The notes: generated by a model not told the origin, from the letters alone. A stretch of 64,000 nucleotides of DNA from an uncultured Bacteroidales bacterium (GCA_900315245.1 OMYJ01000002.1:57864-121863), one strand, 5' to 3'; shown: positions 39,832 through 55,154, counted from the first letter of the stretch. Translations and numbers: made by a program.

Positions 39832-40350
39832 ATGGCAAAGAAAAGAGAAAAGAAGACCGTTTACAGCGGCATCACATCGGAACAGATGGAACAGGCATTC
39901 GCCGATTATGCGAAGGCGGACGCGAGACAACAGAAAATCACCGCCGAGATGGACATCCAGATGGCCAAGATCCGCGAGAAGTGGCAGGACGAGCTGACGA
40001 AGCTGGCCGAGACGAAAGACAATGCTTTCGACATCCTGCAGGCCTACGCCTTGGAGAACCGCGACGAGCTGTTCAGCAAGCGCAAGAGCTTGGAGACCAC
40101 CCACGGCACCCTCGGCTTCCGCACCGGCACCCCGACGCTGGAGACCAGGAAGGGCTTTACCTGGGCGAGCGTGTTAGAGATGCTGAAGGAGTTCCTGCCC
40201 AACTATGTGCGCACCAAAGAGGAACCCGCCAAGGACAAGCTGCTGGCCGACCGCGAGGACGAAGAGGTGGCCGCCCTATTCCCCAAGATGGGGGTAGTTG
40301 TGGTGCAGGACGAGACGTTCTTTGTGGAACCCAAGAAGGAGGATTTGTAG
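39832..40350 (+). CDS. gam: host-nuclease inhibitor Gam (Mu Gam-like)
   Basis: 172 aa. AFADYAKADARQQKITAEMDIQMAKIREKW...L..YA..NRDELF...KS..T.HG.LGFR matches the Mu Gam pattern. Confidence 0.75.
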   Translation: MAKKREKKTVYSGITSEQMEQAFADYAKADARQQKITAEMDIQMAKIREKWQDELTKLAETKDNAFDILQAYALENRDELFSKRKSLETTHGTLGFRTGTPTLETRKGFTWASVLEMLKEFLPNYVRTKEEPAKDKLLADREDEEVAALFPKMGVVVVQDETFFVEPKKEDL

Positions 40351-40373
40351 GGGCGCGATTCATCGCGTCCGCA
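40346..40373. repeat. GC-rich hairpin, degenerate member of TGTAG...CA palindrome family
   Basis: tgtag-gggcgcgat-tca-tcgcgtcc-gca, sitting between the gam stop and the next start. Confidence 0.5.
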
Positions 40374-40392
40374 TTTTCCAAACACGATCGGT

Positions 40393-40761
40393 ATGAAGGT
40401 TTACATTGCAGGAAAAGTCAGCGATCTTCCCAGTTGGGAGGTGTTCATCAAGTTCGCCCAGGCTGAAATGTGGCTGAGGGAGAAGGGACACGAGACCGTG
40501 AACCCGCTGCGGCTGTGTTCGTCGAAATGGACATGGGAGCAGTGTATGCGCGTGTGCATCACGGAGCTGGTGAAGTGCGACGCCATCTGCCTGCTGAAGG
40601 ACTGGGGCGACAGTCCCGGCGCCGTCACCGAGCACTACGTGGCCTCGCGGCTCGGGATGCGGGTGATGGTGTTCATACCGAAAAACGGGATCTTGAGTAA
40701 CGCCGTTTGTAGAGACGTTGCGCGCAACGTCTCTACAGCGGACAAAACCGAAAGACAATGA
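40393..40761 (+). CDS. DUF4406-like (nucleoside 2-deoxyribosyltransferase-like fold) protein
   Basis: MKVYIAGKVSDL...A..L...G..V.NP...........W..CM..C...L..CDAI.LL.DW..S.GA..E. The last ~20 codons are supplied by a 30-nt palindrome. Confidence 0.6.
   Translation: MKVYIAGKVSDLPSWEVFIKFAQAEMWLREKGHETVNPLRLCSSKWTWEQCMRVCITELVKCDAICLLKDWGDSPGAVTEHYVASRLGMRVMVFIPKNGILSNAVCRDVARNVSTADKTERQ
40708..40737. repeat. perfect 30-nt palindrome TGTAGAGACGTTGCG|CGCAACGTCTCTACA
   Basis: Read directly from the sequence. It lies inside the 3' tail of ORF 40393-40761, 21 nt before the next start. Confidence 0.9.
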
Positions 40762-41168
40762 GAAAATTTGTATTGACATTTCCAGGAACCGAGGGTGACA
40801 TTGTGTTCACCTACGACGACGGCGAGGTGCTGCAGGGCGTGTCCTTCAACGGCAACTACCCGGAGGAGCAGCGGCGGAATGTGCTGCGGACGCTGCCGAT
40901 GCGCCCGGAGGTGCTTCAGCGGATCAACTGGCGCGACGGCATCCTCACCGAGGAGGCGGAGAAGGTGACGTTTGAGATGTTCTGGGACCGCTACAACGAC
41001 AAAGCCCGCAGCAGCCGGGTGAAAACCCAGCGTGTGTGGGACAGGATGCCGGAGGGAGAGCGGGTGAAGGCCTACCGCTACATCAACCGCTACAAGAGCT
41101 CCATTCCCCAGGGGGTGTGCATGAAGTACGCGACGACGTATCTGAACGACCAGCTTTGGAACAACTGA
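40758..41168 (+). CDS. hypothetical early/middle protein
   Basis: 136-aa ORF with ATGA overlap and GC3-rich codons. Confidence 0.55.
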   Translation: MRKFVLTFPGTEGDIVFTYDDGEVLQGVSFNGNYPEEQRRNVLRTLPMRPEVLQRINWRDGILTEEAEKVTFEMFWDRYNDKARSSRVKTQRVWDRMPEGERVKAYRYINRYKSSIPQGVCMKYATTYLNDQLWNN

Positions 41169-41244
41169 GCAATGCTGAATGCTGAATGCTGAATGTTGAA
41201 TATTGAATAAACAATTCACTAATCACTAATCACCAATCACAATT
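41169..41244. repeat. two tandem word repeats (ATGCTGA x4-5; AATCACT x4) running up to the ATG
   Basis: gcaatgctgaatgctgaatgctgaatgttgaatattgaataaacaattcactaatcactaatcaccaatcacaatt. Confidence 0.85.
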
Positions 41245-41601
41245 ATGAGCAAATTCAAACTTAAACTGAACCAGATGGAGATGAAGACTTTGGGGTCGTG
41301 CTGTGTGTATGCGGCGCGGAACATGGGGAGGGTGGAGTGTGTGGCCGGACTCGCCATCCTGGAGACCTGCGAGCGGCTGTGGAGCCGGATGCGGAACATG
41401 TACCGTCCGGATCGCGACAAATACACCCTCCGCCTGGGTGCGATGGAGGTGCATACACTCACCGCCACCGTGCTGCCCGCAATGCGGGACATGGACGAGC
41501 CGATTGTCCGCACCATGGGCTATGCTTTTGCCGAAGAGCTTCGCAAACAAAGCGAACGCGAGATTAACATCTACAACGCGATGCGCTATGGTGACGCTTG
41601 A
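41245..41601 (+). CDS. hypothetical protein
   Basis: 118-aa ORF whose start follows the repeat tract. Confidence 0.5.
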   Translation: MSKFKLKLNQMEMKTLGSCCVYAARNMGRVECVAGLAILETCERLWSRMRNMYRPDRDKYTLRLGAMEVHTLTATVLPAMRDMDEPIVRTMGYAFAEELRKQSEREINIYNAMRYGDA

Positions 41602-41905
41602 TCTGATATACGGCGTGATGACGAACTTCTACCACCAGACGTTCCGGCTGTCGAAGTCGCGCAGCCCGAAGGTTGCGGAGAAGAAGCAGATGTTCGCTAT
41701 GCTGGCCAGACACTACGGCCACCGAGTGGTGGACATCCGTGACTACATGGGCTGGCGCAACCACGGCAGCGTTTGCCTGGCGGTGCGCCGGATGCAGGGT
41801 TTCATCGATGTGTATCCGAAGGTGCAGCGCGAGGCCGTGGAGCTCCTCAACAAGGTGGACGAGGCCGCCGGCCAGAAGTATCTGGAATTTGATTCGGCGG
41901 TCTGA
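41588..41905 (+). CDS. DnaA domain IV-like HTH protein (candidate middle/late regulator)
   Basis: Start at MVTLDLIYGV. KKQMFAMLARHYG..VVDIRDYMGWRNHGSVCLAVRRMQGFI resembles the DnaA C-terminal DNA-binding domain (R.iamyL...S...IG....dHstV.ha). Confidence 0.5.
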   Translation: MVTLDLIYGVMTNFYHQTFRLSKSRSPKVAEKKQMFAMLARHYGHRVVDIRDYMGWRNHGSVCLAVRRMQGFIDVYPKVQREAVELLNKVDEAAGQKYLEFDSAV

Positions 41906-41934
41906 CCCGGAAAAATTATTAACAACATACGATT

Positions 41935-41960
41935 AACGCCCGCGAAATGCGGGCGTTTTT
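41935..41960 (+). terminator. strong rho-independent terminator ending the early/middle operon
   Basis: acgcccgc-gaaa-tgcgggcgt followed by T5. Confidence 0.8.
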
Positions 41961-41961
41961 G

Positions 41962-41969
41962 TATTTTTG
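41962..41969 (+). promoter_or_regulatory. -7 box within conserved TGTATTTTTGCGGC
   Basis: TATTTTTG, 20 nt upstream of ATG 41989. Confidence 0.6.
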
Positions 41970-41988
41970 CGGCGTAGAGAAAACACGT

Positions 41989-42255
41989 ATGGCACGAAAC
42001 CGATTGAATTACCTGCTGCACTGCAAGAAAGTGGTGGACATTGTGAACCAGCACTACGAGGAGGGGTGGACCACCTACGCCGCCGTGTGGCGCAGGTATG
42101 TCAATCCCGTCTATCCGATGAGCTACGCCACCTTCATCAAGATTATCAATATGCCGGGAATTGACCGCCAGATCGAGGAGGCGGAACGGCAGGCGGCCAG
42201 CGAACGCGACCGCAGGTTGGTGACTAACCGCTGCCAGCTGTCGCTGTTCGATTAG
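41989..42255 (+). CDS. hypothetical small protein with own promoter (possible regulator)
   Basis: Start at MARNRLNYLL; 88 aa. It sits between the terminator and the convergent late block. Confidence 0.5.
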   Translation: MARNRLNYLLHCKKVVDIVNQHYEEGWTTYAAVWRRYVNPVYPMSYATFIKIINMPGIDRQIEEAERQAASERDRRLVTNRCQLSLFD

Positions 42256-42260
42256 ACGCA

Positions 42261-42280
42261 GGGCGAATGATTATTCGCCC
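42261..42280. other. 8-bp GC-rich hairpin between convergent stop codons
   Basis: gggcgaat-gatt-attcgccc, followed by ctaca. There is no T-run, so this is not a canonical terminator. Confidence 0.6.
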
Positions 42281-42820
42281 CTACAGCCGTCTGATTTCCG
42301 GAATCACATTCACGTATTGTTTCTCCTGCACGATGGGAGTTCCGTCCATCCCGGTCATCGGGGTGTTGGCTGATGTGTCCGTCACCCTGCAGACGTATTC
42401 CTCCACGCTATCGACGTAGCGTTCGTGGTTGTGGTTGGGGATGGTCTGGGTGCGCATCCAGGCGTTGGAGCAGGGTGCGGTGAAATTCTGCATGGCGGCC
42501 ACCACGCTGTCCACAATGTCGAGGTATTCCAATGCTCGGTCTTCCAAGTCATCCGGTGTGTAGTCGGCGGTGAGGGCGTGCCATTCGGTGACGATGTGGA
42601 GGCGGGTGATCAGGTCGGCGTCCTGGACACGGTTGCCGAGGGTGCGCCACTTCATCGGGAGGAACTCCACGAAGACAGCGGGGGTGAGGAAGGGGGTCTC
42701 CTGCTCGATGAACTCCACCTGCTGGTTCCAGAGGTCGAAATGTTTGAAGAGAGGTTGGCCATCCGCACCGGGGATGTTCTTCAAGCGGTTCTTGATGGCT
42801 AAGTAAAGTTGTTTTTTCAT
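42281..42820 (-). CDS. virion-associated hypothetical protein (head-tail joining region by position)
   Basis: 179-aa ORF with a 4-nt overlap with the upstream gpG-like gene. Confidence 0.5.
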   Translation of the reverse strand: MKKQLYLAIKNRLKNIPGADGQPLFKHFDLWNQQVEFIEQETPFLTPAVFVEFLPMKWRTLGNRVQDADLITRLHIVTEWHALTADYTPDDLEDRALEYLDIVDSVVAAMQNFTAPCSNAWMRTQTIPNHNHERYVDSVEEYVCRVTDTSANTPMTGMDGTPIVQEKQYVNVIPEIRRL

Positions 42821-43308
42821 TGTTTGGAAATTTGTTTGAGTTTGCGTTCTATTTCGGATATGATGAGGGCGTTGAGTTCCTCGCTCTCACCCATAAACTG
42901 TCGCTTAGGCATGATGAAACCGCTTCCTCTGCCCGCCCGGAGGCCTTCGTTGTGGACACGTCCGTAGGGCTCTTTGGCAAATGCTGAAGGCGCGGTCCAG
43001 ACAACCACTTCCCCCTTGGACACATACTTGACCTCGATCGATCGGGCGAGGTCGCCAGTTTCGCCGGTGAGGATCTTGCGGGTGGTGCGTGCCGGATGGT
43101 TCCGGGCGGCCGTGCGGAACGCCGCCGTGCCCGGGGTGCGGCGTTTCACCTCCTGCCACTTCACCCGTCCCCACGCCTCGTTCTGAAAGTTCTTCTTGAA
43201 GTAGCTGACGGCGGTCTTGCCGGCAATGGTGGGGCCGTACTTGTCAAAGAGGTCTTTGAACTCGTTTTTCAGCCGGCCGATTTCCTTTCCAAATTGCTCT
43301 GGTGTCAT
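42817..43308 (-). CDS. phage virion morphogenesis protein (Mu gpG / HK97 gp10-like)
   Basis: ILTGETGDLARSI...VHNEG...PKRQFMG motif pattern; 163 aa. Confidence 0.65.
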   Translation of the reverse strand: MTPEQFGKEIGRLKNEFKDLFDKYGPTIAGKTAVSYFKKNFQNEAWGRVKWQEVKRRTPGTAAFRTAARNHPARTTRKILTGETGDLARSIEVKYVSKGEVVVWTAPSAFAKEPYGRVHNEGLRAGRGSGFIMPKRQFMGESEELNALIISEIERKLKQISKQ

Positions 43309-43397
43309 AATGATTGAATTTTTGCGCGAAAATACTATTTGTGGGGACTTCAGCTGTCGTTTGTTCGGATTATCGGTATAGCCATACCGATTTTTTG

Positions 43398-43405
43398 TAT
43401 TTTTG
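43398..43405 (+). promoter_or_regulatory. -7 box within TGTATTTTTGCGGC
   Basis: TATTTTTG, 26 nt upstream of ATG 43431. Confidence 0.6.
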
Positions 43406-43430
43406 CGGCCTGTTTAGCTTGAATGGCATT

Positions 43431-43874
43431 ATGGACGACAATCAACTGCTGGAACAGAATGAGGTGCTGAAGCAGCAGCATTCTGATCTTCAGAAAGAAT
43501 TTTGGAAAGAAAAGACAAAGTGGCTTCGTTTCCTTGTAACGACAATGTCAATCGTTCTCGGCATTCTGATTTCTGTGGGACCCGATTATAAATCTCCACT
43601 CCATATTGGGATTTGCTTTGTAATTGGAGTGTTTCTACTGACGCTGGGTATTCTGTTTCTATCAGTTTGCCTTTATTCAGGAATACACTATAAAAGCCGG
43701 GGAATTGTGTTGTTCGAAGAAGAAGCCAAAAAAGCGATTCAAGAGCGTCGTCGGGCGCAATCGGTAAAGGTTCAACCCCGAGCCATATTCTCAATCTCCG
43801 AAGTTTGCGGATACATTTGTTTCGTGTTGGCTTTACTCGCTTTATGCGCATACATGTTTTTACGCTTGTTATGA
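43431..43874 (+). CDS. AT-rich moron: 147-aa membrane protein (3-4 TM), opposite strand to surrounding late genes
   Basis: Start at MDDNQLLEQNE... Hydrophobic segments are LRFLVTTMSIVLGILISVG, IGICFVIGVFLLTLGILFLSVCLY and VCGYICFVLALLALCAYMFL. It has its own promoter. Confidence 0.6.
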   Translation: MDDNQLLEQNEVLKQQHSDLQKEFWKEKTKWLRFLVTTMSIVLGILISVGPDYKSPLHIGICFVIGVFLLTLGILFLSVCLYSGIHYKSRGIVLFEEEAKKAIQERRRAQSVKVQPRAIFSISEVCGYICFVLALLALCAYMFLRLL

Positions 43875-43989
43875 TTTTTTCTTTCATAATTTTTCGTTTT
43901 AGGTGTTTGTATATTGAAATTTTTGTATTTTTGCCGCTGGAAAGCCGAGTGTGAAAGAACCCCTTGTTCTTCTGCGGTTTTCTTTTTTT

Positions 43990-45036
43990 TTAGTAGGGTT
44001 CCGTAATTGTATAAAGGTTTAGACCTCCTGTTTTAAATTCACCTATCTTTACCTGAAACTCATAGCCATGAATACTTATTTTATACACTTTCATGGTGCT
44101 GAATAATTTTTTGCGTTGATAGAAGATACTACGGTGATTGTTGTGTGACAAATCAATCTCTTCATCTGGTAGTTGTGTAAACAGAGAAATGTATTTGTCA
44201 AAATTCAGCGCGATTTCCTGTTTGTAGAAATAAGACTTATCTGTTTTTGCTCCTTTTGTTATCTCTTGGATAGTAATATTATCTACCAAGACATTACCGA
44301 TTGAAGTATTAAAATGTAAATCAATATCGCTGTATTTTTCCCTGTTGATTTCGCGCACAGTTCTTATCACCGCTGTTCCCGTATTGTTTCCCGCCTGTTG
44401 GAAGTACGTGCAGTTCTCGCCGAAGATTTCCCCGGTTTCGGCGGGATTGCCTTCGAGGCCTTTGGCGTGGTGTGCATCTGTGGGGTTGCTGTCGGTGACG
44501 GGGTCGTCGGTCTCCTCCCAGTCGCACTTGCAATTCCATAAATTCCCAGGTTGGTTTTCGCTCCAGAACGGGTCGGACTTCGCCCATACCCGGTTGTAGA
44601 ACACCATGTGTTCCTCTCGTGGGTTTGCGCTGCGGGATGGCAGCCATTTCAGGTTCGGGTACAGCTCGTTGGCGATGGGGTCGGAGGTGAAGTCGGTCCA
44701 CTGCTTGGCGGTGCGGGCACGGGCCGTGGCGGTGTTGTACTCCGCTGCCTGGTAGCGGTTAAAGGTGTTGAGCACCGCCTTGGCCACTTTCTTGTATTCG
44801 TCATCGTCGGTCCATTTTTCCCGCTGTTTTTTCAGCTGCTCGGTGAGATGGTAGGCCTTGTATGCGGCAAAGCGGGTCACGTTGCTCTGAAGCTGTGCCT
44901 GGAGGTCGAAGTATCGGTCACCGTAGTCATCGGAGCGGAACACGCCGCCCACGGCTTTGCGCAGGTTGTCGGAGTAGGCCTTATAGACATCAGGGTGTAT
45001 GTTCCCGGCATTGCCTTCCATCACATCCCGGATCAC
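43990..45036 (-). CDS. MuF / SPP1 gp7-family minor head protein with ~170-aa C-terminal extension (annotated from GTG 45036; frame stays open and coding-like up to 45243)
   Basis: RFAAYKAY..., NRYQAAEYNTA.ARAR.AKQW, PSRSANPREEHM.FYN and the NCKC motif define the MuF core. The AT-rich tail ends ...GGLNLYTITEPY. Confidence 0.8.
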   Translation of the reverse strand: MIRDVMEGNAGNIHPDVYKAYSDNLRKAVGGVFRSDDYGDRYFDLQAQLQSNVTRFAAYKAYHLTEQLKKQREKWTDDDEYKKVAKAVLNTFNRYQAAEYNTATARARTAKQWTDFTSDPIANELYPNLKWLPSRSANPREEHMVFYNRVWAKSDPFWSENQPGNLWNCKCDWEETDDPVTDSNPTDAHHAKGLEGNPAETGEIFGENCTYFQQAGNNTGTAVIRTVREINREKYSDIDLHFNTSIGNVLVDNITIQEITKGAKTDKSYFYKQEIALNFDKYISLFTQLPDEEIDLSHNNHRSIFYQRKKLFSTMKVYKISIHGYEFQVKIGEFKTGGLNLYTITEPY

Positions 45037-45159
45037 CTTCTCGTACAGCTCCCGTTTGGAGAGGTTGTAGAGCGTGGGGAAGGAGAGCAGCGCATCAAGA
45101 GCCTCGGCCGTGCTGCCGTGGAAGTAGAGGTCGTCAAGTTCTGCCAGGGCGTTTCGGAC

Positions 45160-45192
45160 GGACAGGTCGCTGCCTGTCCTCAGAAGAAAAAA
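45160..45192 (-). promoter_or_regulatory. candidate -1 programmed ribosomal frameshift cassette at portal 3' end
   Basis: Minus strand: aaT_TTT_TTC ttc tga GGACAGG-cagcga-CCTGTCC. Heptamer at 45192-45186, 6-nt spacer, 7-bp stem at 45179-45160. The -1 frame is the MuF frame. Confidence 0.45.
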
Positions 45193-46493
45193 TTCTTCAG
45201 GCGGTTGAGCAGGTTGTTGGATCCGCGCCGGGGTCTGCCGGTTTCATCCTCCTTTAACGGGTTTTGCAACGGTGTTTCAAAGGGGGTGAAACTGTGCGCC
45301 ATGCGCAGCTCTTCCTTCAGCTCCTCGTAGTTGTCGGGCTTGGGGATGTCGAACTCCTCGTAGATGTAGTCGTCAGCGATGGGCAGCTTGTCGCTGATGG
45401 AGTTGAGCACGTCCCATTTGGTCTTCAGCTCGTTCCAGTCCTTGTCCGGGGACTGGTACCAAATGACGCCGCCGGTGACGTTGATGCCGAAGCGTTTGAG
45501 GATGGCGCGGAACCGGGTGTTGAGGATGGCCAAGATGAAACGTTTGTCGCTCTCGGTCTTCTCGTCTTCCACCTCCTTGTGGATTTCGCCCAAGGAGCGT
45601 GCGCCACGGTCGCCCTGTTCGGTGGTGAGGGTGTTGCCGAGGATAATCTTGGAGATGGAGGCGTCGCAGGCCTGGATGAGGCGGTCATACACCTCATTGC
45701 TGCCGGTGCTGCCGCCGGTCTCGTGGATCTTCAGCTCGGTGCTGCGCGGGTGGATGCTGTAGCCGGAACTGCCCCACTCCTGAAGCCCCTGTTCCAGTTT
45801 GGCGCGGGTGGCCTCGTCATAGTCGTCGTAGATCAGTTCGCGGAAGGGCATCCCGAACATCTCGGCAAACTGGCTCCAGTCGCCGAAACCGCCGCGTTTG
45901 TAGATGACGTACTGCGCCGCCTTCACAAACAGCCCTTTGTCGGTGGGGTCGCCCGCCCACAGCATATAGTTGGCCAAGGGGAGTTCCCTGTACAGCCAGT
46001 CTTTCGACACCAATGACTGCTGGCGGCTCACGCACTCGAATCCCTCCTCCGGATGCACGTGCTTGCGGGGTATGAGGTCGTAGTCGATCTTGTAGGTCTC
46101 CTCGTCCTCGTCGTACCACACATTGTTCACCTGGATGAGCGTGTAGCCCCAGGCGATGCTGTTGTGCAGGTCGCGGATAAGCAGGCGCATATCGGGCGAG
46201 TTGAGCAGGGAGGAGATTTCCTCGTCCTCCACGCCGTCGCGCACGAACACCAGCTCTTTGTTGAGCACCGCGTCCTGGCGTTTGCCCCAGGTGGCCTCGA
46301 TCTGCCCGTCGAGCAGGATGTCGTCGTAGAGGTCATATAGGTAGGTGCGGTTGGGATTGGTGATGTTCTCGAACGCCCGGATGGCGTTCTTCCAGTTCTC
46401 AATGTCCTGCGTGTTGTGCGGGGCGTTGTGGATCTGGATGTTCTGCACTATGATGTTGTCGGGGGTCTTCCCCTGTTTTCTTTTTACAGCCAT
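45180..46493 (-). CDS. portal protein (Mu gp29 / DUF935 family)
   Basis: 437 aa. IENWKNAIRAFENITNPNR..LYDLYDD.LLDG.I....KR resembles the DUF935 N-terminus. The gene follows the terminase. Confidence 0.8.
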   Translation of the reverse strand: MAVKRKQGKTPDNIIVQNIQIHNAPHNTQDIENWKNAIRAFENITNPNRTYLYDLYDDILLDGQIEATWGKRQDAVLNKELVFVRDGVEDEEISSLLNSPDMRLLIRDLHNSIAWGYTLIQVNNVWYDEDEETYKIDYDLIPRKHVHPEEGFECVSRQQSLVSKDWLYRELPLANYMLWAGDPTDKGLFVKAAQYVIYKRGGFGDWSQFAEMFGMPFRELIYDDYDEATRAKLEQGLQEWGSSGYSIHPRSTELKIHETGGSTGSNEVYDRLIQACDASISKIILGNTLTTEQGDRGARSLGEIHKEVEDEKTESDKRFILAILNTRFRAILKRFGINVTGGVIWYQSPDKDWNELKTKWDVLNSISDKLPIADDYIYEEFDIPKPDNYEELKEELRMAHSFTPFETPLQNPLKEDETGRPRRGSNNLLNRLKNFFF

Positions 46494-46496
46494 GGG

Positions 46497-46910: not shown

Positions 46911-46914
46911 GTCG

Positions 46915-47160: not shown

Positions 47161-47182
47161 TTTTTTGGTGAAACATTTAAGG

Positions 47183-48718
47183 TTAAACACGTCGTTTATT
47201 GCGTGGGCGTCTGCCCATAGTCAGCATTTCTCCAGACCGCTCCAGCGCTTTCTGCCCGGCCACGAACACTGCGCCCTCCACGCTGTCGGGTCCGTCGGCT
47301 GGGGCTTTGAGCTGCGGGCTCACAAGCAGGAACTGTTCGGCCAGCCGCTCCATGTGCGGATTGCCCCGCTTCGCCTCGTTGAACACAAGGCGGCATTCCC
47401 GGTTGAGGGGTTCCAGGTTGCCTTCTATGCGGTCGTATTTGTCCGGCTTGCTGCGGGTGTCGGGCACCATGTTCAGATAGTAGCCCTTCTCCTTCGCCTT
47501 GGTTGCGAACAAGGGTTTGAAAACCTGCTCGTAGAAAGGATCCTGAAGGGTGTTGTTCTCCACGTAGTTGTAGAGCTGCGCGGTGGTGTTGCCGAAACCC
47601 TCGTTGATGTCGTAGAACCAGTCCACGAACTCGGCGTTGGTGGCGTGGTCGAGGCGGCAGTCCAGAATGTAATAGGTGCCGTCGAGCAGCCCCACGGCGC
47701 TGATTGCCTTCATGGAGCCGGCCTTGTTTTTGGAATTGGAGGGCGAGGGGTCGCCGTAGATGATGATGTACCGGAAACGGTTGGTCTTGGGAACCTTTCC
47801 CCACGTGAGCTCCTTGAACACGTCACCCTCTGACAGCGGGTTGTTGTAGTATTCCTGCTGTTTGGCGCGGGTGCTGATTTTGGAGAGGATGAAGTCGATA
47901 TCCTCCTCGCTGTTCTTGCTCCAGGATGACTTCCCGTTTTTGTCGCGGATGTTCACGATGTCGAATTTGTCGGCGGCCTTGCCGGCGCGGGCGATGCAGC
48001 AGTCTTTGGCGATGATGTTGCCGTTGAACAGGATCCGGACATCGCCGGACACGGAGACGGTGGGGATGAGCGCCTGTTCAATCCAGTCCCACTTCTGCTT
48101 TATGCGGTCGGGGTTGCGGCACTCCTCGTCGGTGTCAATATCGTCGATGAGGATGAAATCGGGACGGGCGGCCTCGTTGCGGGTGCCACGGGGCGACTGT
48201 CCCGCGCCCAAGGCACGGAACGAGCAGCCGCATTTGGCGATGAACTCACCGTCCTCCCAGTGCCCTTCCACCTTCTGCTCGCCGTAGTCGTTGATGATGC
48301 GCAGGTTCTTCTCCAACTGCATCCTGAACGGCAGCATCAGGCGGCAGGCGTTGTCGTAGCTGTTGGACACCAGCAGGAAGTTGCGGATCCTGCCGGTGAG
48401 GGCCAGGTAGAGCACCTCGAACATGGAACGCGCCGACTTGGCCAACTCGCGGCTCCACGCCCGCACCTCGTACCAGCGTCGGTGCGCGAACAGGCGTTTG
48501 GTGGCCGCAATGTGGAACGGCGCGGGTTCGGCGGTGCAGTATTTCGGGAAATAGTATTTGAACCACTCCTCCGGATTGGCTTCAAGATGCGCGATGCGTT
48601 TCTGTCGCTCTATCTCGCTCTCGGAGCTGTCAACCTCCACATCGGAGATGAACTGGCTGTAGTATTCCTCCCAGTCCTTGAGCAGCTGCTTGTCCGTAGG
48701 TTTGCGTATCTTGGCCAT
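47183..48718 (-). CDS. terminase large subunit
   Basis: Start at MAKIRKPTDKQLL (ATG 48718). Walker-like region, then nuclease-domain acidic motifs (ILIDDIDTDEE...). 511 aa. Confidence 0.8.
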   Translation of the reverse strand: MAKIRKPTDKQLLKDWEEYYSQFISDVEVDSSESEIERQKRIAHLEANPEEWFKYYFPKYCTAEPAPFHIAATKRLFAHRRWYEVRAWSRELAKSARSMFEVLYLALTGRIRNFLLVSNSYDNACRLMLPFRMQLEKNLRIINDYGEQKVEGHWEDGEFIAKCGCSFRALGAGQSPRGTRNEAARPDFILIDDIDTDEECRNPDRIKQKWDWIEQALIPTVSVSGDVRILFNGNIIAKDCCIARAGKAADKFDIVNIRDKNGKSSWSKNSEEDIDFILSKISTRAKQQEYYNNPLSEGDVFKELTWGKVPKTNRFRYIIIYGDPSPSNSKNKAGSMKAISAVGLLDGTYYILDCRLDHATNAEFVDWFYDINEGFGNTTAQLYNYVENNTLQDPFYEQVFKPLFATKAKEKGYYLNMVPDTRSKPDKYDRIEGNLEPLNRECRLVFNEAKRGNPHMERLAEQFLLVSPQLKAPADGPDSVEGAVFVAGQKALERSGEMLTMGRRPRNKRRV

Positions 48719-48719
48719 A

Positions 48720-49169
48720 TCAGAGACAGGATTTGATGTAGGCGTTGAAGAGGCGCGCCACCTCCTTGCTGGTGTCGAACCCGGAGGTCTTGCGCACGAA
48801 GGAGAGGAACTCCTTGCCGGTGGCCATCTTCTCGGCGATGTTGGTTTCGGTTTCAAGATTCTTGATGGCGGTGGTGATCTTGACAATGGTGTCCGCCTCC
48901 TTGGATCCGGCAAAGTTCTCGCCTTCCTCGCGCCCCTCGATGGCGTCGTTGAGGCGCTTGAGCTGCCCGTAGAGCCGTGCGAGCTGCACATCCTTGCCAA
49001 CCAGCAGCGAGGTCTGCAACTCCTCCCACTTGCCCTCTTTCACCCATTTGCATACGGTCACCTTGCTCACTCCCACACGCTCGGCAATCTCGGCCTGGGT
49101 TATACTTGAATCGTTCAAGTATAACTGGCGGGCGTAGTCCTTTTTCTGTTCTCTTGTCAGTTCTGCCAT
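48720..49169 (-). CDS. terminase small subunit (HTH, Mu gp27/DUF1804-like)
   Basis: Start at MAELTREQKKDYARQLYL. HTH ITQAEIAERVGVSKVTVCKWVKEGKW. Abuts the TerL start. Confidence 0.65.
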   Translation of the reverse strand: MAELTREQKKDYARQLYLNDSSITQAEIAERVGVSKVTVCKWVKEGKWEELQTSLLVGKDVQLARLYGQLKRLNDAIEGREEGENFAGSKEADTIVKITTAIKNLETETNIAEKMATGKEFLSFVRKTSGFDTSKEVARLFNAYIKSCL

Positions 49170-49192
49170 AATTCCGTCTTGAAAAATCACGG

Positions 49193-49200
49193 CAAAAATA
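49193..49200 (-). promoter_or_regulatory. -7 box (minus strand TATTTTTG) for packaging block
   Basis: Minus strand gctatttttgccgtg, 24 nt upstream of ATG 49169. Confidence 0.55.
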
Positions 49201-49294
49201 GCGTGTAAACACAATGGAAGTTGTGAATGTGGCAATGGGATATATGGCTATATTGTTGATAGATACAAAATAAAAATATGTCGCGGGAGGGCTG

Positions 49295-49302
49295 TATTTT
49301 TG
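49295..49302 (+). promoter_or_regulatory. -7 box within TGTATTTTTGCCGC for head/tail operon
   Basis: TATTTTTG, 56 nt upstream of ATG 49358. Confidence 0.55.
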
Positions 49303-49357
49303 CCGCCTGATTCAATGTAAACCCAAAAAAGATTTGACATGAAAAAGTAAAAAAGGA

Positions 49358-50470
49358 ATGGCAAAGCAGAGTAAAACAGCAAAGAGGAACGAGGGTTTCG
49401 AGATGTATCTTTACGGCATCATCGGACGCGGGCTGGACATCGACACCAACGTGCTGATCGCCACCATCGAGTCGAAGCGGAAAGAGGGTGTGCGCTCGTT
49501 CACATTTTACGTGAACAGCGACGGAGGAGAGGTGGCGCAGGGCGCAGCCCTGTTCAACTACTTGGACCGCACGGACGTGGACATCACCTGGGTGGTGGAC
49601 GGCATAGCGGCCTCGATGATGGCCGCGCTGATCACCAACCCGAAACACCATGTGAAGGCCGCCCGCCACGCCAAGTTCATGTACCACCGCGTGAGCGGCT
49701 ACGTGTATGGCAACAGCGACGAGACCAGAGCCGCCGCCGATATGATGGACAGCTTCGAAAAGACGCTCATCGAGATGATAGCTCTCCGCACCTGTAAGAG
49801 TGCCGAAGAGATTCGCAATCTCTATTTTGACGGCGTGGACCACTGGCTGAGCGCGGAGGAGGCGGTGCAAGCCCGTTTGTGCGACGAGATCATACAGACC
49901 AATATGAACATAAAGGAGTTGGAGAACGTTACGGATGCCCGCAGCGCCTTCAACTACTACAATAACCAAATTATTAACTTAAAACAGCAAAAGATGGATG
50001 AAAAAGCATTTGCCGCCGCACTGAACATCAGCGAGACCTCCACGGAGGCCGAAATGCTGAATAGTGTGCGCGGTGTGGTGAATGAGAGAAACACCCTCCG
50101 CCAGCAGCTGCAAACCGAGAAGGACAAGGTTTCCAATCTGGAGAACCGCCTTCAGGAGTTTGAGCGCGGCAAGGTGAAGAATCTCATCGACTCGGCCATT
50201 GCGGACAAGCGCATCGGCGAGGACGACCGCGAGGCCTACACCAAGTTGGCCGAACAGGACTACGAGAACACCGAGAAAATCCTGAACAGGATGAAACCGG
50301 TGACGCGCGTGAAGGACAGTCTGGAGACAGGCGCGACCCCGAAAGAGGAGGAAGGATGGGACTGGGACAAGTACCACCGCTCCGGTAAGTTGGAAAACCT
50401 CAAAAAGAACAACCCCGGCCGCTATGCCGAGCTTTACAAGGCGAAGTTCGGATGCGACCCCAAAAACTAA
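49358..50470 (+). CDS. ClpP-like (S14) prohead protease fused to coiled-coil scaffold domain
   Basis: FYVNSDGGEV..GAALFNYL...VDGIAASMMAAL...H.VSG. The C-terminal 170 aa are coiled-coil. Confidence 0.8.
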   Translation: MAKQSKTAKRNEGFEMYLYGIIGRGLDIDTNVLIATIESKRKEGVRSFTFYVNSDGGEVAQGAALFNYLDRTDVDITWVVDGIAASMMAALITNPKHHVKAARHAKFMYHRVSGYVYGNSDETRAAADMMDSFEKTLIEMIALRTCKSAEEIRNLYFDGVDHWLSAEEAVQARLCDEIIQTNMNIKELENVTDARSAFNYYNNQIINLKQQKMDEKAFAAALNISETSTEAEMLNSVRGVVNERNTLRQQLQTEKDKVSNLENRLQEFERGKVKNLIDSAIADKRIGEDDREAYTKLAEQDYENTEKILNRMKPVTRVKDSLETGATPKEEEGWDWDKYHRSGKLENLKKNNPGRYAELYKAKFGCDPKN

Positions 50471-50475
50471 GCATT

Positions 50476-50871
50476 ATGTCGTATATCAGAAAAGAGACCA
50501 ACGCAAGTTACAACTTTGTGGCGCCCAACATTGAAAAAGACGCCGACAAAAAGGTGGAGGTAGTATTCCCCACCGCAGAGTTAGTGGAACCCACCCTCAG
50601 CTCCAACGCCGCAGAGGTGAAAGTGGAACGCGACACCACCATTGTTGACCTTGGCACGCTTGAAGCGGCGGCCACCCTGACCCTCACCCCCGGCAACAGC
50701 CTGAACATCGGTGCAAAAGTGGTGGTGAAGGCCGCCAGCGACGGCACCGCCCGCGCTGTGACCGTGAAACAGGACGCATCCACCACGGTGGACACCATCA
50801 GCGGCACCGCCAGCACCACCAAGGCGAAACAATATATGTGGACCGGATCCGCATGGATTGCTATCAGTTAA
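50476..50871 (+). CDS. hypothetical head protein (decoration-like by position)
   Basis: Start at MSYIRKETN; 131 aa, Ala/Thr/Val-rich. Sits between the protease and the capsid gene. Confidence 0.5.
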   Translation: MSYIRKETNASYNFVAPNIEKDADKKVEVVFPTAELVEPTLSSNAAEVKVERDTTIVDLGTLEAAATLTLTPGNSLNIGAKVVVKAASDGTARAVTVKQDASTTVDTISGTASTTKAKQYMWTGSAWIAIS

Positions 50872-50889
50872 CAACCAAAACCGAAAGAA

Positions 50890-52011
50890 ATGAAAAAAGG
50901 ATTGAGATTCATTATGAGTATGCTCATGGCACTTACGTTGTCATGTGTTGTGGGGGCGGCCACCGCTCCCGCTATCGGCGCAGCCACCTTCGTGGCCGCC
51001 AACCTGGTGCATGTTCCCGCCGGTTCCCTGGGAATGGCCGTCACTCCGGAAATCTGGACTGACTATATCATCGGAAACCTTTTCAAGACCAACGAGTTTC
51101 TCTTGCACTCCGTCGATGAGTCGCAGTATGTGATCGGGGGAACGGTGGTGCATATTCCGCAGGCGGGCTCGCCCAGCGGTGTGCAGCGCAACAGATCCTC
51201 GCTACCGGCAACCATCACGCGCAGAAAGGACGTGGACATCACTTACGCATTGGATGAGTTCACCACCGACCCGCGCTTTATCCCGTATGCCGACAAAGTG
51301 GAGTTGAGCTATGACAAGATGGACAGCTGCATGACCGAGGATATGACATACCTGCACCAGCTGACCGCCGAAGCCATGCTCTACAACTGGCGACCCACCT
51401 TCTTCATCAAGGCCACCGGCACCAAGGATGCCAAAAACACCATCCACGGTTCCAACTTGAGAACCGGCGTGACGGTGGAGGATTTCGCCAAAGCCAAGGT
51501 TATCTTCAACAAATGGGGCATCCCCAAGGACAGCAGGTATGTGCTTCTGAACACCGAGATGTACGAGCAGCTCTGCTCTGACATCCGCAACTCGCAGAAC
51601 GAGAATCTGAGCGCGATCTACGACAATGTGACCGGCGAGCTGCGCAAGCTCGAAGGGTTCACCATCGAGCAACGCGCCACCGCATTGCTGGCTTCCAACT
51701 CCACCCTGACCGCCGTGACCGGCAACAAGTATTTCAGATGGACCGGCAACGACCTCACCTATACCGTGGAGGACTACGAGGCCATTGAGCGAGGTGAGAA
51801 GCAGGAGGGTACGACCGACTGTTGCTACGGTCTGTTCTGGCATCCGTCGTGTGTGGCCCGCGCCATGGGTTCCACGCAGATGTTCAGCAAGGAGGGCGAC
51901 CCCACCTATTACGGCGACATTTATAGCTTCCTGCAGCGCCTGGGCGGCCGTGCCCGCAGAGGCGACAGCAAGGGTGTGCTTGGATTGATCCAGGAATACC
52001 ACGCAAGCTAA
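50890..52011 (+). CDS. major capsid protein (HK97-fold type)
   Basis: 373 aa. EIWTDYIIGNLFKTNEFLLHSVDES.YV.GG.VVHIPQAG...V..NR...P....R.D.DITY.LDEFTTDP..I...D..ELSYDK. Confidence 0.8.
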   Translation: MKKGLRFIMSMLMALTLSCVVGAATAPAIGAATFVAANLVHVPAGSLGMAVTPEIWTDYIIGNLFKTNEFLLHSVDESQYVIGGTVVHIPQAGSPSGVQRNRSSLPATITRRKDVDITYALDEFTTDPRFIPYADKVELSYDKMDSCMTEDMTYLHQLTAEAMLYNWRPTFFIKATGTKDAKNTIHGSNLRTGVTVEDFAKAKVIFNKWGIPKDSRYVLLNTEMYEQLCSDIRNSQNENLSAIYDNVTGELRKLEGFTIEQRATALLASNSTLTAVTGNKYFRWTGNDLTYTVEDYEAIERGEKQEGTTDCCYGLFWHPSCVARAMGSTQMFSKEGDPTYYGDIYSFLQRLGGRARRGDSKGVLGLIQEYHAS

Positions 52012-52032
52012 CAACCAATAACCACGCATATC

Positions 52033-52446
52033 ATGCCGACACCAAGAGGAATACGGAACAACAACCCGCTGAACATCCGGCACAGCCGGGACCGCTTCCA
52101 GGGCGAAGTGGTCCCGAGCCGTGACGGGGCGTTCAAGCAGTTCAGCAGCATGGCTTACGGCTACCGTGCCGCGTTCGTGACACTGGCCACCTACCTGGCC
52201 CACGGACGCAACACGGTGGAGAAGATTATCCGTGCGTGGGCGCCTCCCACAGAGAACAACACCGAGGGCTACATCGCCCACGTGGTGCAACGCAGTGGCG
52301 TGGGACGCAACAAGGTGCTCACGGCGGAATCCGGCGGCGACTACCGCAAGATAGTCGCTGCCATGAGCCACTGCGAGAACGGCATCCCGGCTAACATGGC
52401 CGACGTGGAGGCGGGGTTCCGGATGCAGAGCAAAATTAGAAATTAG
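52033..52446 (+). CDS. conserved phage protein with RNNNPLNIR motif (possible virion or cell-wall-active protein)
   Basis: 137 aa. GIRNNNPLNIRHS...F.G......F..F....YGYRA....L..Y...G.NT...II..WAP..EN.T..Y. Confidence 0.55.
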   Translation: MPTPRGIRNNNPLNIRHSRDRFQGEVVPSRDGAFKQFSSMAYGYRAAFVTLATYLAHGRNTVEKIIRAWAPPTENNTEGYIAHVVQRSGVGRNKVLTAESGGDYRKIVAAMSHCENGIPANMADVEAGFRMQSKIRN

Positions 52447-52465
52447 TAATTAGAAATTAGTAATT
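52433..52465. repeat. tandem word repeat (TTAGAAATTAGTAA x2) spanning stop and next start
   Basis: aaaattagaaattagtaattagaaattagtaatt followed by ATG. Confidence 0.85.
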
Positions 52466-52816
52466 ATGTGGGAGATGATTTTCACTTCGCTGGGAGGCAC
52501 GTTCCTGGGTACGTTCTTCGGCTGGTTCTTCGGCCGGAAACGCCAGAACATCGACACCATCGACGCGGCTGTGGAGACCTGGAAGAAGATCGTGGACTCG
52601 CTGCAGGAGCAGATCGACCGCCTGTTGGAGCAAAGAGCCTCCGACGCGGCCAAGATAGAGTCGCTGTCTGAACAGGTGAAGCAGCAGAACGCGCACATCG
52701 AGGAGCTGAAGGAACAGGTTTCATCGATGGAGCTGAAGGTGAAGAGTGTGAACCATCTGGAGAAGACCATCGCCCGCTACGAGAAACTGTTGGACGCTAA
52801 CGGAATCGAATATTAA
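52466..52816 (+). CDS. N-terminal TM + coiled-coil protein (holin/spanin-like by architecture)
   Basis: MWEMIFTSLGGTFLGTFFGWFFG, then a heptad-rich helix; 116 aa. Confidence 0.5.
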   Translation: MWEMIFTSLGGTFLGTFFGWFFGRKRQNIDTIDAAVETWKKIVDSLQEQIDRLLEQRASDAAKIESLSEQVKQQNAHIEELKEQVSSMELKVKSVNHLEKTIARYEKLLDANGIEY

Positions 52817-52845
52817 ACCCCTTTTGTTAAGATTGGCCCCGACGG

Positions 52846-52875
52846 TGTAGAGACGTGCCATGGCGCGTCTCTACA
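52846..52875. repeat. 30-nt palindrome TGTAGAGACGTGCCATGGCGCGTCTCTACA
   Basis: Intergenic. The outer 10-bp arms are identical to copy 40708, and the core is identical to copy 55125. Confidence 0.9.
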
Positions 52876-52895
52876 AGCCGGAGGGAAATGACAAG

Positions 52896-53201
52896 ATGAT
52901 GATAAAAATGTGGAAATGGATTGTGTGGGTTGTGCTCATAGCGGCGACGGCGGTGGCATCCACGGCGGCGGCCCTTGAGGGGAACCACCGACGGTCACTT
53001 GAAAAACAGGTGAAAGAGCAGTCGGTGGTGATCGACAGCCTTCTGAGCCGCGACCAGCCGATGTTGGACGTGAAGCTGTATGTGACCGATAAATCCAGGA
53101 ACACCATCTACGGCCGTTACAACAAGGGGAATATCTGGATGCCGCAGGAACGGCGTTACATCCTGGAAGTGGATAGCATGAACATGAGAGTCAGGAATTA
53201 A
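52896..53201 (+). CDS. membrane-anchored hypothetical protein
   Basis: Start at MMIKMWKWIVWVVLIAATAVAS. The upstream ATG at 52860 lies inside the palindrome. Confidence 0.5.
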   Translation: MMIKMWKWIVWVVLIAATAVASTAAALEGNHRRSLEKQVKEQSVVIDSLLSRDQPMLDVKLYVTDKSRNTIYGRYNKGNIWMPQERRYILEVDSMNMRVRN

Positions 53202-53229
53202 CGATTTGCGATTATAAGATTTTAGAATT

Positions 53230-53394
53230 ATGGACCCCAACAACAAAAACAGCAAGCCGGTGAAAAAGGCAGCGGGAGGTGTGGCCTACCCGATGCTGAA
53301 AGACGGAAAGTGGTTCTGCTCTGACGGGCAGTATTTCACAGATGCCTATTTTGCCCGGATGCACGAAAAACAAATCAAAACCAAACAGTCATGA
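53230..53394 (+). CDS. small hypothetical protein (54 aa, below ORF-track cutoff)
   Basis: MDPNNKNSKPVKKAAGGVAYPMLKDGKWFCSDGQYFTDAYFARMHEKQIKTKQS. ATGA overlap with the sheath-like gene. Confidence 0.4.
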   Translation: MDPNNKNSKPVKKAAGGVAYPMLKDGKWFCSDGQYFTDAYFARMHEKQIKTKQS

Positions 53395-54659
53395 ATGATA
53401 TTAAATTCGAGAAAACCAACGGCGGTCTGGGCAGACAAACGGGATCTGAAGATGTGATCAGCGGTCTGATTTTCGCCGGTATGGGCTTCACGTTCGGCGA
53501 CGCCGATGTTAATCTGAAGGGCTTTGACACCGCAGCAGTTGACGATCAGAACAATGCCTCTGCCTTTGCCCGGAAGTTCATCTATCCTGAGCAGCTGAAG
53601 GATGCGGGCATCGTGTTTACCAAGCCAGGTGACGGTTCCGAAAGCAATGGAACCCTCTCGAACATCGAGATTGCCAAGAACGTGCTGTACTACCATATTA
53701 CGGAATTTTTCCGAATGAATCCTGAAGGCGTGCTGTATGTGATGATAAAGGCGAACAGCGCAACAGTTGAAGTCGATGACATTGCCACGCTGCAGACCTA
53801 CGCAGGCGGCAATATCCGTCAAGTTGGCGTGTTCAACAGCACATTGCTGCCCATTGAAAAAAGCACCACAGGTGTCACCGGCGTTCAGGAAGTATGCAAA
53901 AATCTGGAAAACGCGCACCGCCCGCTGAGCGTTGTGCTGACCTACAACGGTGATAATGTCACTTTGGATGACTTGACAGCCAACAACAATAACCCAGCCG
54001 CTGACGGGAATTGTAATGTGTCGCTGCTGATAGGATGCGATATGGACGCCGGGCTTGCAGAAGCTCTGGGTGACAACTACTCCAAGTATGGATGTATCGG
54101 CCTCTGTATCGGTGCCATCAGCAAGGCCAATGTGCATGAGAGCATTGCCTGGGTGGGCAAATTCCCATTGGGGCTTAAAGCCCCCGCCTTGTTCACCGGC
54201 AACCTGATCCGCAACATCGCCACCCACAAGCTGGAGGAGCTGAACGACAAAAGATACATCTTCCCCGTTATCCATGCTGGCGACGCGGACAACTACTTCA
54301 ACGACAGCCACACGCTGGATGTCGATTCTTCGGACTATGCCTACATTGAGAACGTGCGCACGATCGACAAGGCCTGTCGCGGCATCCGCGGCAAGCTGCT
54401 GCCGTGGCTGAACTCGCCCTTGCGTGTGGATCCGAGCAACGGTCAATTGGAGAGCGGCATGGTGTCGTTCCTGGAGACCACCGCCGGGGAAGCCCTGGAG
54501 GAGATGGAGAAGGCCGGCGAGATCAGCGGTTACAAAGTGGAGATCGACCCGGCGCAGAACGTGCTGGCCACCTCCGCCTTGGAGATTGTGATCAAGAAGG
54601 TTCCCGTGGGCGTGATGCGCAAAGTGACGGTGAAGATCGGCTACACGACTTCGCTGTAA
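53391..54659 (+). CDS. putative contractile tail sheath protein (DUF2586-like)
   Basis: 422 aa, immediately upstream of the tube-like gene, the frameshifted chaperone and the TMP. Confidence 0.55.
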   Translation: MNDIKFEKTNGGLGRQTGSEDVISGLIFAGMGFTFGDADVNLKGFDTAAVDDQNNASAFARKFIYPEQLKDAGIVFTKPGDGSESNGTLSNIEIAKNVLYYHITEFFRMNPEGVLYVMIKANSATVEVDDIATLQTYAGGNIRQVGVFNSTLLPIEKSTTGVTGVQEVCKNLENAHRPLSVVLTYNGDNVTLDDLTANNNNPAADGNCNVSLLIGCDMDAGLAEALGDNYSKYGCIGLCIGAISKANVHESIAWVGKFPLGLKAPALFTGNLIRNIATHKLEELNDKRYIFPVIHAGDADNYFNDSHTLDVDSSDYAYIENVRTIDKACRGIRGKLLPWLNSPLRVDPSNGQLESGMVSFLETTAGEALEEMEKAGEISGYKVEIDPAQNVLATSALEIVIKKVPVGVMRKVTVKIGYTTSL

Positions 54660-54683
54660 TCTATAACCTAAAATCCAAGAATT

Positions 54684-55118
54684 ATGAACGGACTCAGATA
54701 TAATTCGATGATCAACGGGGTGGTTCACTCCTGGAGCAGCGTGCAGGTGATTATGGGCGGTGTGCCGGTGACTGGCATCAACAAGATCGACTATGACAGC
54801 AAGCAGACCAAGGAGGCCATCTACGGCGCCGGACAGAACCCTGTGGGCAAAGGCTATGGCAAGATTGAGAACAGCTGCACCATCGGACTCCTCCGCGAAG
54901 AGGTGGAGGCCATGCGTGCCGCCTCCCCCACCGGAAGACTGGCCGACCTTGCCCCCTTCAACATCATTGTGCAGTACTTGCCTGTGAACGGCCAGAAAAA
55001 GGTCACGCACCGCATCCTTGGCGCGGAGTTCACCAACGACGGCGGCGAGCTGAACGAGGGTGACACCAGCGACTACAACGAGTATGAATTGCTCGTGAGC
55101 GACATCCGATACAATTAA
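54684..55118 (+). CDS. putative tail tube protein
   Basis: 144 aa. W..V.V.MGGVPV.GI..IDY.......IYGAG..PVG.G.G...... pattern, plus position. Confidence 0.55.
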   Translation: MNGLRYNSMINGVVHSWSSVQVIMGGVPVTGINKIDYDSKQTKEAIYGAGQNPVGKGYGKIENSCTIGLLREEVEAMRAASPTGRLADLAPFNIIVQYLPVNGQKKVTHRILGAEFTNDGGELNEGDTSDYNEYELLVSDIRYN

Positions 55119-55124
55119 CCCCAT

Positions 55125-55154
55125 TGCAGAGACGTGCCATGGCGCGTCTCTGCA
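55125..55154. repeat. 30-nt palindrome TGCAGAGACGTGCCATGGCGCGTCTCTGCA
   Basis: Differs from copy 52846 only by T->C at position 3 and the paired A->G at position 28 (a compensatory change). Confidence 0.9.

Follow-up and report, generated by a model that had tools for sequence, protein, structure and literature searches.

The transposases of TnpA_REP subclass 2.4 (Quentin et al. 2018; PMC6006769), which correspond to Group 4 of the tyrosine transposases associated with REPs (RAYTs) of Bertels et al. 2017 (PMC5581495), are marked by the motifs NH[IFV]H and YIxNNP and are accompanied by two types of repetitive extragenic palindrome (REP): a 'canonical long' type, in which the bottom of the stem consists of three G-C pairs, and a 'double foot' type, which begins with GT[AG]G at the 5' end and finishes with C[TC]AC at the 3' end. 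REPs that lie in frame within the tnpA_REP gene, between its HuH and Y motifs, are a feature unique to this subclass, and the double foot could derive from an inverted dimer by central deletion (PMC6006769). Table S1 of the same study enters GTAGAGACGCACGGCCGTGCGTCTCTAC as a subclass 2.4 double-foot REP with a 12-bp stem and a 4-nt loop. Here, we describe palindromes with an identical outer stem in a 64,000-nt stretch of DNA (the window) from an uncultured Bacteroidales bacterium (GCA_900315245.1 OMYJ01000002.1:57864-121863). With a probability of about 0.82, these palindromes are REP elements of subclass 2.4 that have accumulated at the junctions and 3' ends of genes within a Mu-like prophage whose host belongs to the Bacteroidota. 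They do not constitute a regulatory signal of the phage; the family is already described at the sequence level and the elements of the window are new members of it.

The pattern AGAGACG-N10-CGTCTCT occurs at exactly three sites in the window (40711-40734, 52849-52872 and 55128-55151), against 0.17 expected, and a count of three was reached in none of 100 shuffles. These sites belong to three palindromes of 28-30 nt matching GYAGAGACG-N10-CGTCTCTRC, which were found exactly where a preliminary description of the sequence had placed them: copy 1 at 40708-40737 (core 40709-40736), copy 2 at 52846-52875 (core 52847-52874) and copy 3 at 55125-55154 (core 55126-55153), no strand being assigned to any of them. 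Copy 1, GTAGAGACG-TTGCGCGCAA-CGTCTCTAC, is indeed a perfect 15+15 palindrome (100% complementary), while copies 2 and 3 are 93% complementary, their sole non-Watson-Crick pair reading T.G on the plus strand and C.A on the minus strand. Copies 1 and 2 have their outer arms in common and differ in their centres (TTGCGCGCAA and TGCCATGGCG, respectively); copies 2 and 3 have identical cores, and their 30-mers differ only at positions 3 and 28, where the T-A pair of copy 2 is a C-G pair in copy 3. Both of these comparisons had already been drawn in the preliminary description and hold. The feet of copies 1 and 2 are GTAG and CTAC, as published for the double-foot type, and those of copy 3 are GCAG and CTGC, its orthologue in a related phage having GTAG; T occupies the second foot position in >90% of 116 distinct family members. 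Folded as single-stranded DNA, the three copies form 13 pairs closed by a 4-nt loop (-10.2 to -14.3 kcal/mol, z -4.9 to -6.7), compared with the published 12 bp and 4 nt.

Two further elements bring the total in the prophage to five. Both are single-foot REPs of the 'canonical long' type. One, at 40347-40370 on the plus strand, consists of a GTAG foot (40347-40350) and a stem GGGCGCGAT/ATCGCGTCC with the 2-nt loop TC (-7.9 kcal/mol, z -2.7); it had been taken for a decayed relative of the large palindromes (40346-40373) and is instead the other subtype of the same system. The other, GTAGGGGCGAATAATCATTCGCCC, lies at 42261-42284 on the minus strand (-9.1 kcal/mol, z -4.7) and had been overlooked; it emerged from a scan of the window for GT[AG]G followed by a hairpin, in which the chance level averaged 2.6 hits per shuffle. 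All five copies are singletons, the nearest two being ∼340 nt apart, and no REPIN-type doublet (two inverted REPs with a spacer) is present in the window.

The five elements lie at gene junctions and 3' ends, and the placement proposed for four of them, after gam, at the 3' tail of the DUF4406 gene and in short gaps for copies 2 and 3, was borne out. The stop codon of gam (PF07352, 39832-40350) is the TAG at 40348-40350 of the GTAG foot of the first single-foot REP. The DUF4406 open reading frame (ORF; 40393-40761) reads through copy 1 (...CRDVARNVST...), which forms its C-terminal tail: PF14359 covers residues 1-92 of 122 and the repeat-supplied tail is 20-30 residues long. The second single-foot REP lies at the convergent junction of ORF 41947-42255 (plus strand) and ORF 42281-42820 (minus strand) and its TAG is the stop codon of the latter. 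The repeats thus contribute two stop codons in addition to the C-terminal tail of the DUF4406 product. Copy 2 lies between ORF 52466-52816 and ORF 52860-53201 and copy 3 between ORF 54684-55118 and ORF 55177-55488, both in short gaps between plus-strand ORFs.

Among described repeats, the double-foot REPs of subclass 2.4 are the nearest: these are 28-nt palindromes with 5' GT[AG]G, 3' C[TC]AC and, in a Table S1 entry, the outer stem GTAGAGACG/CGTCTCTAC, found in Cyanobacteria, Bacteroidetes and other phyla with 'canonical long' REPs alongside. The window copies differ in lying inside a Mu-like prophage, with others at structural-gene junctions of other phages, in having no RAYT in the window and in the wholesale replacement of a centre at an orthologous site. 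The REPs and bacterial interspersed mosaic elements (BIMEs) of Escherichia coli, which go with Group 2 TnpA_REP (Ton-Hoang 2012; Messing 2012, PMC3479197; Corneloup 2021, PMC8266576), likewise carry GTAG at the foot of an extragenic hairpin, are bound in single-stranded form by a Y1/HUH enzyme with cleavage at CT and lie, as here, mostly downstream of genes. They have, however, a single foot, a bulged imperfect stem, a larger loop, BIME arrays and hundreds of copies, whereas the window elements are perfect or near-perfect palindromes and mostly singletons. Pseudomonas REPINs (Bertels & Rainey 2011, PMC3116915) are similar in being non-autonomous, in their supposed dependence on a single-copy RAYT and in showing compensatory stem changes, but are composed of two inverted REPs and a spacer, whereas the window element is one palindrome with both feet. 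The GTAG-tagged REP superfamily (Di Nocera et al. 2013; PMC3733652) shares the GTAG tag, a division into sub-families that differ in their complementary stem residues, G-T pairs in the stem, a location between unidirectional or convergent ORFs with occasional intragenic copies, and clusters that reiterate flanking DNA; its GTAG end is unpaired and at one end only, and GTAG repeats are not reported there for Bacteroidetes, for which only CGTC repeats are given.

A one-genome-per-species collection and the IMG/VR viral collection were scanned with GYAGAGACG-N10-CGTCTCTRC, and each yielded at least 120 stretches, with 128 genome sites and 151 viral sites among the matches listed, to which the counts given here refer; L numbers denote loci of relatives or matches that were compared with the window. 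The genome matches listed come from Bacteroidota, Cyanobacteria (Nostoc, Calothrix, Scytonema and others), Chloroflexota and Acidobacteriota, and further from Ignavibacteria, Planctomycetes, Spirochaetes and Desulfuromonas. A rough estimate from pattern degeneracy and collection size gives a chance expectation of a few tens of hits with random centres in the genome collection. The exact 28-mer GTAGAGACGCACGGCCGTGCGTCTCTAC recurs among both genome and viral matches, and within Table S1 of PMC6006769 GTAGAGACG is found 15 times and GTAGGGGCG 68 times. The outer nine pairs are fixed by the search pattern and are uninformative on conservation. Instead of being random, the centre, which the pattern leaves free, pairs with itself completely at 84 of the 128 genome sites and in four of five pairs at 34 more. 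Across 116 distinct 28-mers, each of the five inner pairs is changed on both sides in 38-63 sequences, and the covariation score is 0.362, compared with 0.110 in shuffles (none of 500 reaching the observed value) and at most 0.066 in slid pairings. Complementarity ends exactly at GTAG/CTAC, the pairs outside being complementary at the chance level of 20-31%. Pair 2-27, the one that distinguishes copy 2 from copy 3, is T-A in 98 sequences, C-G in four, unpaired in five and T.G in nine, so that a path via a T.G intermediate is populated.

The family avoids genes: 64-66% of its sites lie outside any ORF of at least 150 aa, compared with 19-23% of random positions in the same loci, and 20-24% lie deep within such ORFs, compared with 68-72%. 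At several loci the stop codon of the upstream ORF is the TAG of the GTAG foot. T is preferred at position -1, no consistent target-site duplication is seen in the family flanks and a duplicated flank was observed in two cases, of ∼9 bp (L244) and ∼20 bp (L022). As a separate observation, locus L125 (458-4673; a metagenome-assembled genome of a Bacteroidales bacterium, isolate named Goat_Abomasum) has four double-foot REPs with three centres in a 4.2-kb section of a contig that looks chromosomal and gave no match to the proteins of the window phage; ruminant-gut Bacteroidales thus do have REP-dense chromosomal regions.

A literature search by sequence returned primers and BsmBI cloning sites only, and the family was recognised only after a link to RAYT-like genes had pointed to the REP literature. 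Clustering of the flanking ORFs of the 120 genome loci listed gave no gene common to all or most flanks; the largest clusters comprise six or seven loci and one of them is RAYT-like. A RAYT-like gene adjoins or contains the palindrome at seven of the 120 loci (six by clustering, seven by tblastn). The encoded proteins combine an HUH motif, either MPNHLH or NHFH, with YIxNNP near the C terminus, match NF047646 (NCBIfam 'REP-associated tyrosine transposase') with E values of 1e-13 to 1e-16 and give weak matches to Pfam Y1_Tnp. At L135 a palindrome stands on both sides of the RAYT-like gene, and at L134, L179 and L205 it lies in frame between the HUH and Tyr motifs, where it is translated as, for example, VETHGRASLQ, matching the hallmark described for subclass 2.4. 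This REPtron feature, copies flanking a RAYT gene or lying in frame within it, occurs in other genomes and not in the window.

Close relatives of the prophage differ at the REP-bearing junctions. Between gam and the next gene, a REP is present in the window and in L247 and absent from L248 and L251; an array of AATTGAT/AATGGAT heptamers takes its place in L248 (95% Gam identity) and a six-base gap in L251. The surroundings of copy 1 in L247 differ from those in the window at three of ∼55 upstream positions and at one of 77 downstream, with 100% identity in the protein encoded next. Its centre, however, is TTGCGCGCAA in the window and CAAAGTTTTG in L247, with eight of ten positions different, and CAAAATCTTG in L248. 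So many differences within nearly identical flanks mean that the centre was replaced; point mutation is not a reasonable cause. The centre variant of the window is found at another junction in the related phage L060. Copy 2 is present in L047. In L102 and L244 its junction (before ORF 52860) is REP-free and is formed by another allele of the upstream gene, the stop codon of which overlaps the next start (ATGA), while in L022 this allele is joined to a REP whose centre is again different (TGCTGCAGCG), and an apparent repeat of ∼20 nt of the original junction comes after it.

Copy 3 is identical in L243 and L102, and L244, with an upstream protein 94% identical, has GTAG...CTAC at the same position, which makes the GCAG...CTGC of the window a true double change at an orthologous site and confirms the pairing substitution singled out in the preliminary description. 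Both feet have changed from GTAG to GCAG, and a GCAG mutant is barely cleaved in the Stenotrophomonas RAYT system (PMC8266576); the compensatory substitution in copy 3 therefore preserves pairing and not transposase recognition, although it could also arise without selection, by copying from arm to arm within the palindrome. L244 also contains an extra 58-bp insert, in which a REP (centre CAAAATTTTG) is accompanied by a second occurrence of the ∼9-bp flank ATTAACCCC, and is the only relative with a REP doublet (30-nt spacer). These phages offer natural before-and-after pairs for the insertion or alteration of a REP: empty and filled junctions, the 58-bp insert with its duplicated flank and the swapped centre. 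Of the roles put forward in the preliminary description, that of a selfish element resembling a REP or a miniature inverted-repeat transposable element is the one supported: the outer stem is that of a published REP, it occurs in many phyla and is linked to RAYT-like genes, and its presence varies between near-identical phages.

Two observations concern more distant relatives. After the homologue of ORF 54684-55118 in L245 (a 52% identical relative; ∼2940-3060), a decayed copy (GTAAAGACGCACGGCCGTGCGTCTCAAC) precedes a tandem series of two or three incomplete repeats of the right half (GGCCGTGCGTCTCAAC), a pattern suggestive of slippage at the REP or of copying that was aborted there. Just after gam, L252 (∼3030-3110), L253 (∼3040-3120) and L258 (∼3040-3130) contain tRNA-like genes, recognised by eye from T-arm motifs such as GGTTCGAATCC, at the position taken in the window by a REP and the DUF4406 gene.

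Biochemical data on REP binding and cleavage are published for Group 2 and Group 3 RAYTs only, and none were found for subclass 2.4; in the characterised systems the enzyme binds the folded single strand, needs GTAG and cuts and rejoins at CT or CA 5' or 3' of the hairpin (PMC8266576). By analogy, each strand of a window palindrome, when single-stranded, for instance at a replication fork, would fold into a hairpin of 12-13 bp with GTAG at its 5' foot, and a putative host-encoded HUH/Y1 transposase (RAYT) would recognise the hairpin and GTAG and cut and rejoin at a nearby CT. The CT could be supplied by the CTAC of the 3' foot, and each strand of a double-foot element would offer a GTAG foot. 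The repeat would in this way be multiplied or recombined in trans, with a phage that lacks a RAYT serving as a passive target while it is chromosomal. Only insertions that spare genes would survive, which would leave copies at junctions, as stop codons or as harmless C-terminal tails. Since both of its strands read GCAG, copy 3 may be a fossil that is no longer active but in which pairing has been retained. The complementarity of the would-be loop (76-84%) and the swappable centre suggest that one arm is copied from its partner or from another element, which could take place by template switching on the shared nine-base stem or by RAYT-catalysed exchange.

Several findings weigh against the assignment to subclass 2.4. 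No RAYT homologue was detected by tblastn in the 64-kb window or in any viral locus listed, and the RAYT-like proteins encoded elsewhere score 50-58 bits against NF047646, under the curated cut-off of 80. The host-like part of the window (1 to ∼33,900) has no double-foot and no convincing single-foot copy, a marginal single-foot hit at 12208-12234 being at the chance level of the scan, compared with five copies in ∼30 kb of prophage, and purely host-driven spread would not predict this contrast. In addition, the innermost two pairs are complementary in 76-84% of sites, although a hairpin loop needs no pairing there; a paired centre fits double-stranded symmetry or arm-to-arm copying better than plain selection for a hairpin.

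A hairpin acting at the RNA level, which would shield the mRNA upstream of it against 3' exonucleases or act as a point of processing or attenuation and thereby set the relative expression of neighbouring genes, would be compatible with a REP origin and has been proposed for E. coli REPs; the G-T pairing of GTAG repeats has also been read in this way (PMC3733652). The double-foot copies all lie between co-directional plus-strand ORFs, and in copies 2 and 3 the mismatch reads T.G along the sense strand, which RNA would form as G.U, and C.A along the opposite strand. Across loci, the G.T version is on the sense strand 24 times against 12, but this bias is non-significant and relies on crude gene calls of which at least two are wrong. 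Such a role is nevertheless unlikely to explain the palindromes: near-identical phages lack them or carry another centre, so that the copies are dispensable, the same elements also occur at convergent junctions and within genes, and they have neither a T-run nor an Rfam family. Any RNA-stabilising role would be a side effect of the repeat.

The copies do not qualify as intrinsic terminators. Rho-independent terminators are likewise GC-rich hairpins at gene ends, but no copy is followed by a T-run (the downstream sequences read agcggaca, aagccgga and ttaaccct), as the preliminary description had observed, no copy is listed in a terminator scan and, unlike in terminators, the palindrome sequence itself, beyond its structure, is conserved across phyla. 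A search of Rfam at the gathering score yielded two tRNAs in the window and no match to a palindrome; at E values up to 1 on 40000-56000 it gave nothing at the palindromes and one chance miRNA hit elsewhere.

Double-stranded dyad sites for a phage regulator, such as a late activator of the Mor/C type or one of the small DNA-binding proteins encoded at 41303-42255, are a very improbable explanation. The dyad symmetry does extend to the centre (inner pairs 76-84% complementary), and ORF 41303-41905 has a weak match to a DnaA-C-like helix-turn-helix (E 3e-4, below cut-off). The identical outer stem is, however, present in many phyla, including the chromosomes of Cyanobacteria, Chloroflexota and Acidobacteriota, with none of the 120 genome loci listed matching the proteins of this phage, as well as at gene junctions of unrelated phages, and the operator for a Mu C/Mor-type protein once proposed is not supported on these grounds. 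Moreover, the variable part is the centre, where a dimeric protein would make contact, copies are gained and lost between near-identical phages and they are placed at gene 3' ends and not upstream of promoter-like sequences. The palindromes should be annotated as REP elements and not as operators or terminators. It is scarcely credible that they are by-products of restriction-modification, with paired sites as targets or decoys, since, despite two inverted CGTCTC sites per copy (GAGACG/CGTCTC in the conserved arm is the BsmBI/Esp3I-type recognition sequence), conservation runs past the hexamer to GTAG/CTAC, RAYT-like genes are linked to the family, single-foot relatives (GTAGGGGCG...) have no CGTCTC site, flank clustering shows no restriction-modification gene adjoining the sites and the breadth of phyla makes it unlikely.

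The assignment to subclass 2.4 places REPs in phages. Relatives of the window prophage proteins are encoded by 41 of the 120 viral loci listed and by none of the 120 genome loci listed; elsewhere in the viral set, in phages of other types, REPs directly adjoin the genes encoding tail sheath, major head protein, head protease and tape measure. Strict double-foot REPs number three in 80 loci picked via Gam alone (398 kb), so that REP-rich genomes mark particular lineages and not Mu-like phages generally. RAYT genes have been described as absent from horizontally transferred elements, and REPINs as transmitted almost exclusively vertically (10.1101/2021.07.10.451892). Whereas REP-RAYT systems are treated in the literature as vertically inherited residents of chromosomes, here the repeats, and not the RAYT, ride phages, and repeats without a transposase also populate mobile genomes. 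A non-exhaustive search found no mention of REPs in phages in the REP literature, and their occurrence at structural-gene junctions of several phage types, together with their swappable centres, is possibly unreported so far.

A more speculative proposal, which we consider improbable as it stands, is that temperate phages carry RAYT-dependent REPs between genomes and, in addition, that centre replacement is an in vivo trace of REP recombination, which could proceed by RAYT-catalysed strand exchange or by template switching on the shared outer stem. Support for phage shuttling comes from REPs at structural-gene junctions of unrelated phages and from the five copies in ∼30 kb of prophage compared with none convincing in 34 kb of host DNA. 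Shuttling would help to explain a 9-bp stem shared from Cyanobacteria to Bacteroidota and, if true, would qualify the near-pure vertical inheritance published for REP-RAYT systems. In related Mu-like viral contigs, a sub-family with different centres and the conserved flanks cgcRccccRccc-REP-aaYcaaacggRc was noted (L012 7585-7612, L019 6-938, L076 1668-1695, L100 6092-6119 and L111 12947-13656); its members are grouped in twos or threes over a few hundred bases, and it may represent a larger composite, BIME-like unit.

The remainder of the window is as follows. Positions 1 to ∼33,900 are host DNA from a member of the Bacteroidota, encoding MutL, Tex, several proteins that carry sorting domains for type IX secretion and two tRNAs; for one protein of this region, all matches were on contigs of metagenomic origin, one in an ENA metagenome assembly and one in a Logan assembly of a sequencing run. 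The Mu-like prophage occupies the window from ∼33,900 on and has an S24 repressor-like gene, a 711-aa ORF at the transposase position and genes for an AAA+ MuB-like protein and Gam. The early genes are followed by a minus-strand block and then by protease, head and tail genes on the plus strand. The block (42281-49000) contains portal, Mu F-like, gp36-like and virion-morphogenesis genes and a gene for a 605-aa protein (a probable terminase), and faces the early genes in convergent orientation, while it diverges from the genes for protease, head and tail. The corresponding genes of Mu are collinear. The block proteins and early genes also occur together in the related contigs L050 and L107, so that a separate minus-strand block seems typical of this phage group.

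Short tandem arrays with a period of seven (three to six copies) were noted at ∼24 places throughout the window, with varied units such as AGCCAAA, AATTGAT, CAGGTTT and AAATTAG. Examples from the host part are at 175-212, 963-987, 3510-3539, 5429-5533, 10449-10479, 17731-17762, 18655-18696, 22103-22170, 29108-29172 and 32013-32090 and from the prophage at 39793-39821, 41171-41240, 52433-52466, 58012-58035 and 60788-60821. In host and prophage alike, all lie in intergenic spacers, often 0-70 nt upstream of a start codon, with none deep within a long ORF. At the junction before ORF 52466, relatives also have heptamer arrays, of different sequence. Two of the arrays (22103-22170 and 29108-29172) are inverted pairs. 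The arrays recall the short tandemly repeated repetitive (STRR) heptamers of cyanobacteria.

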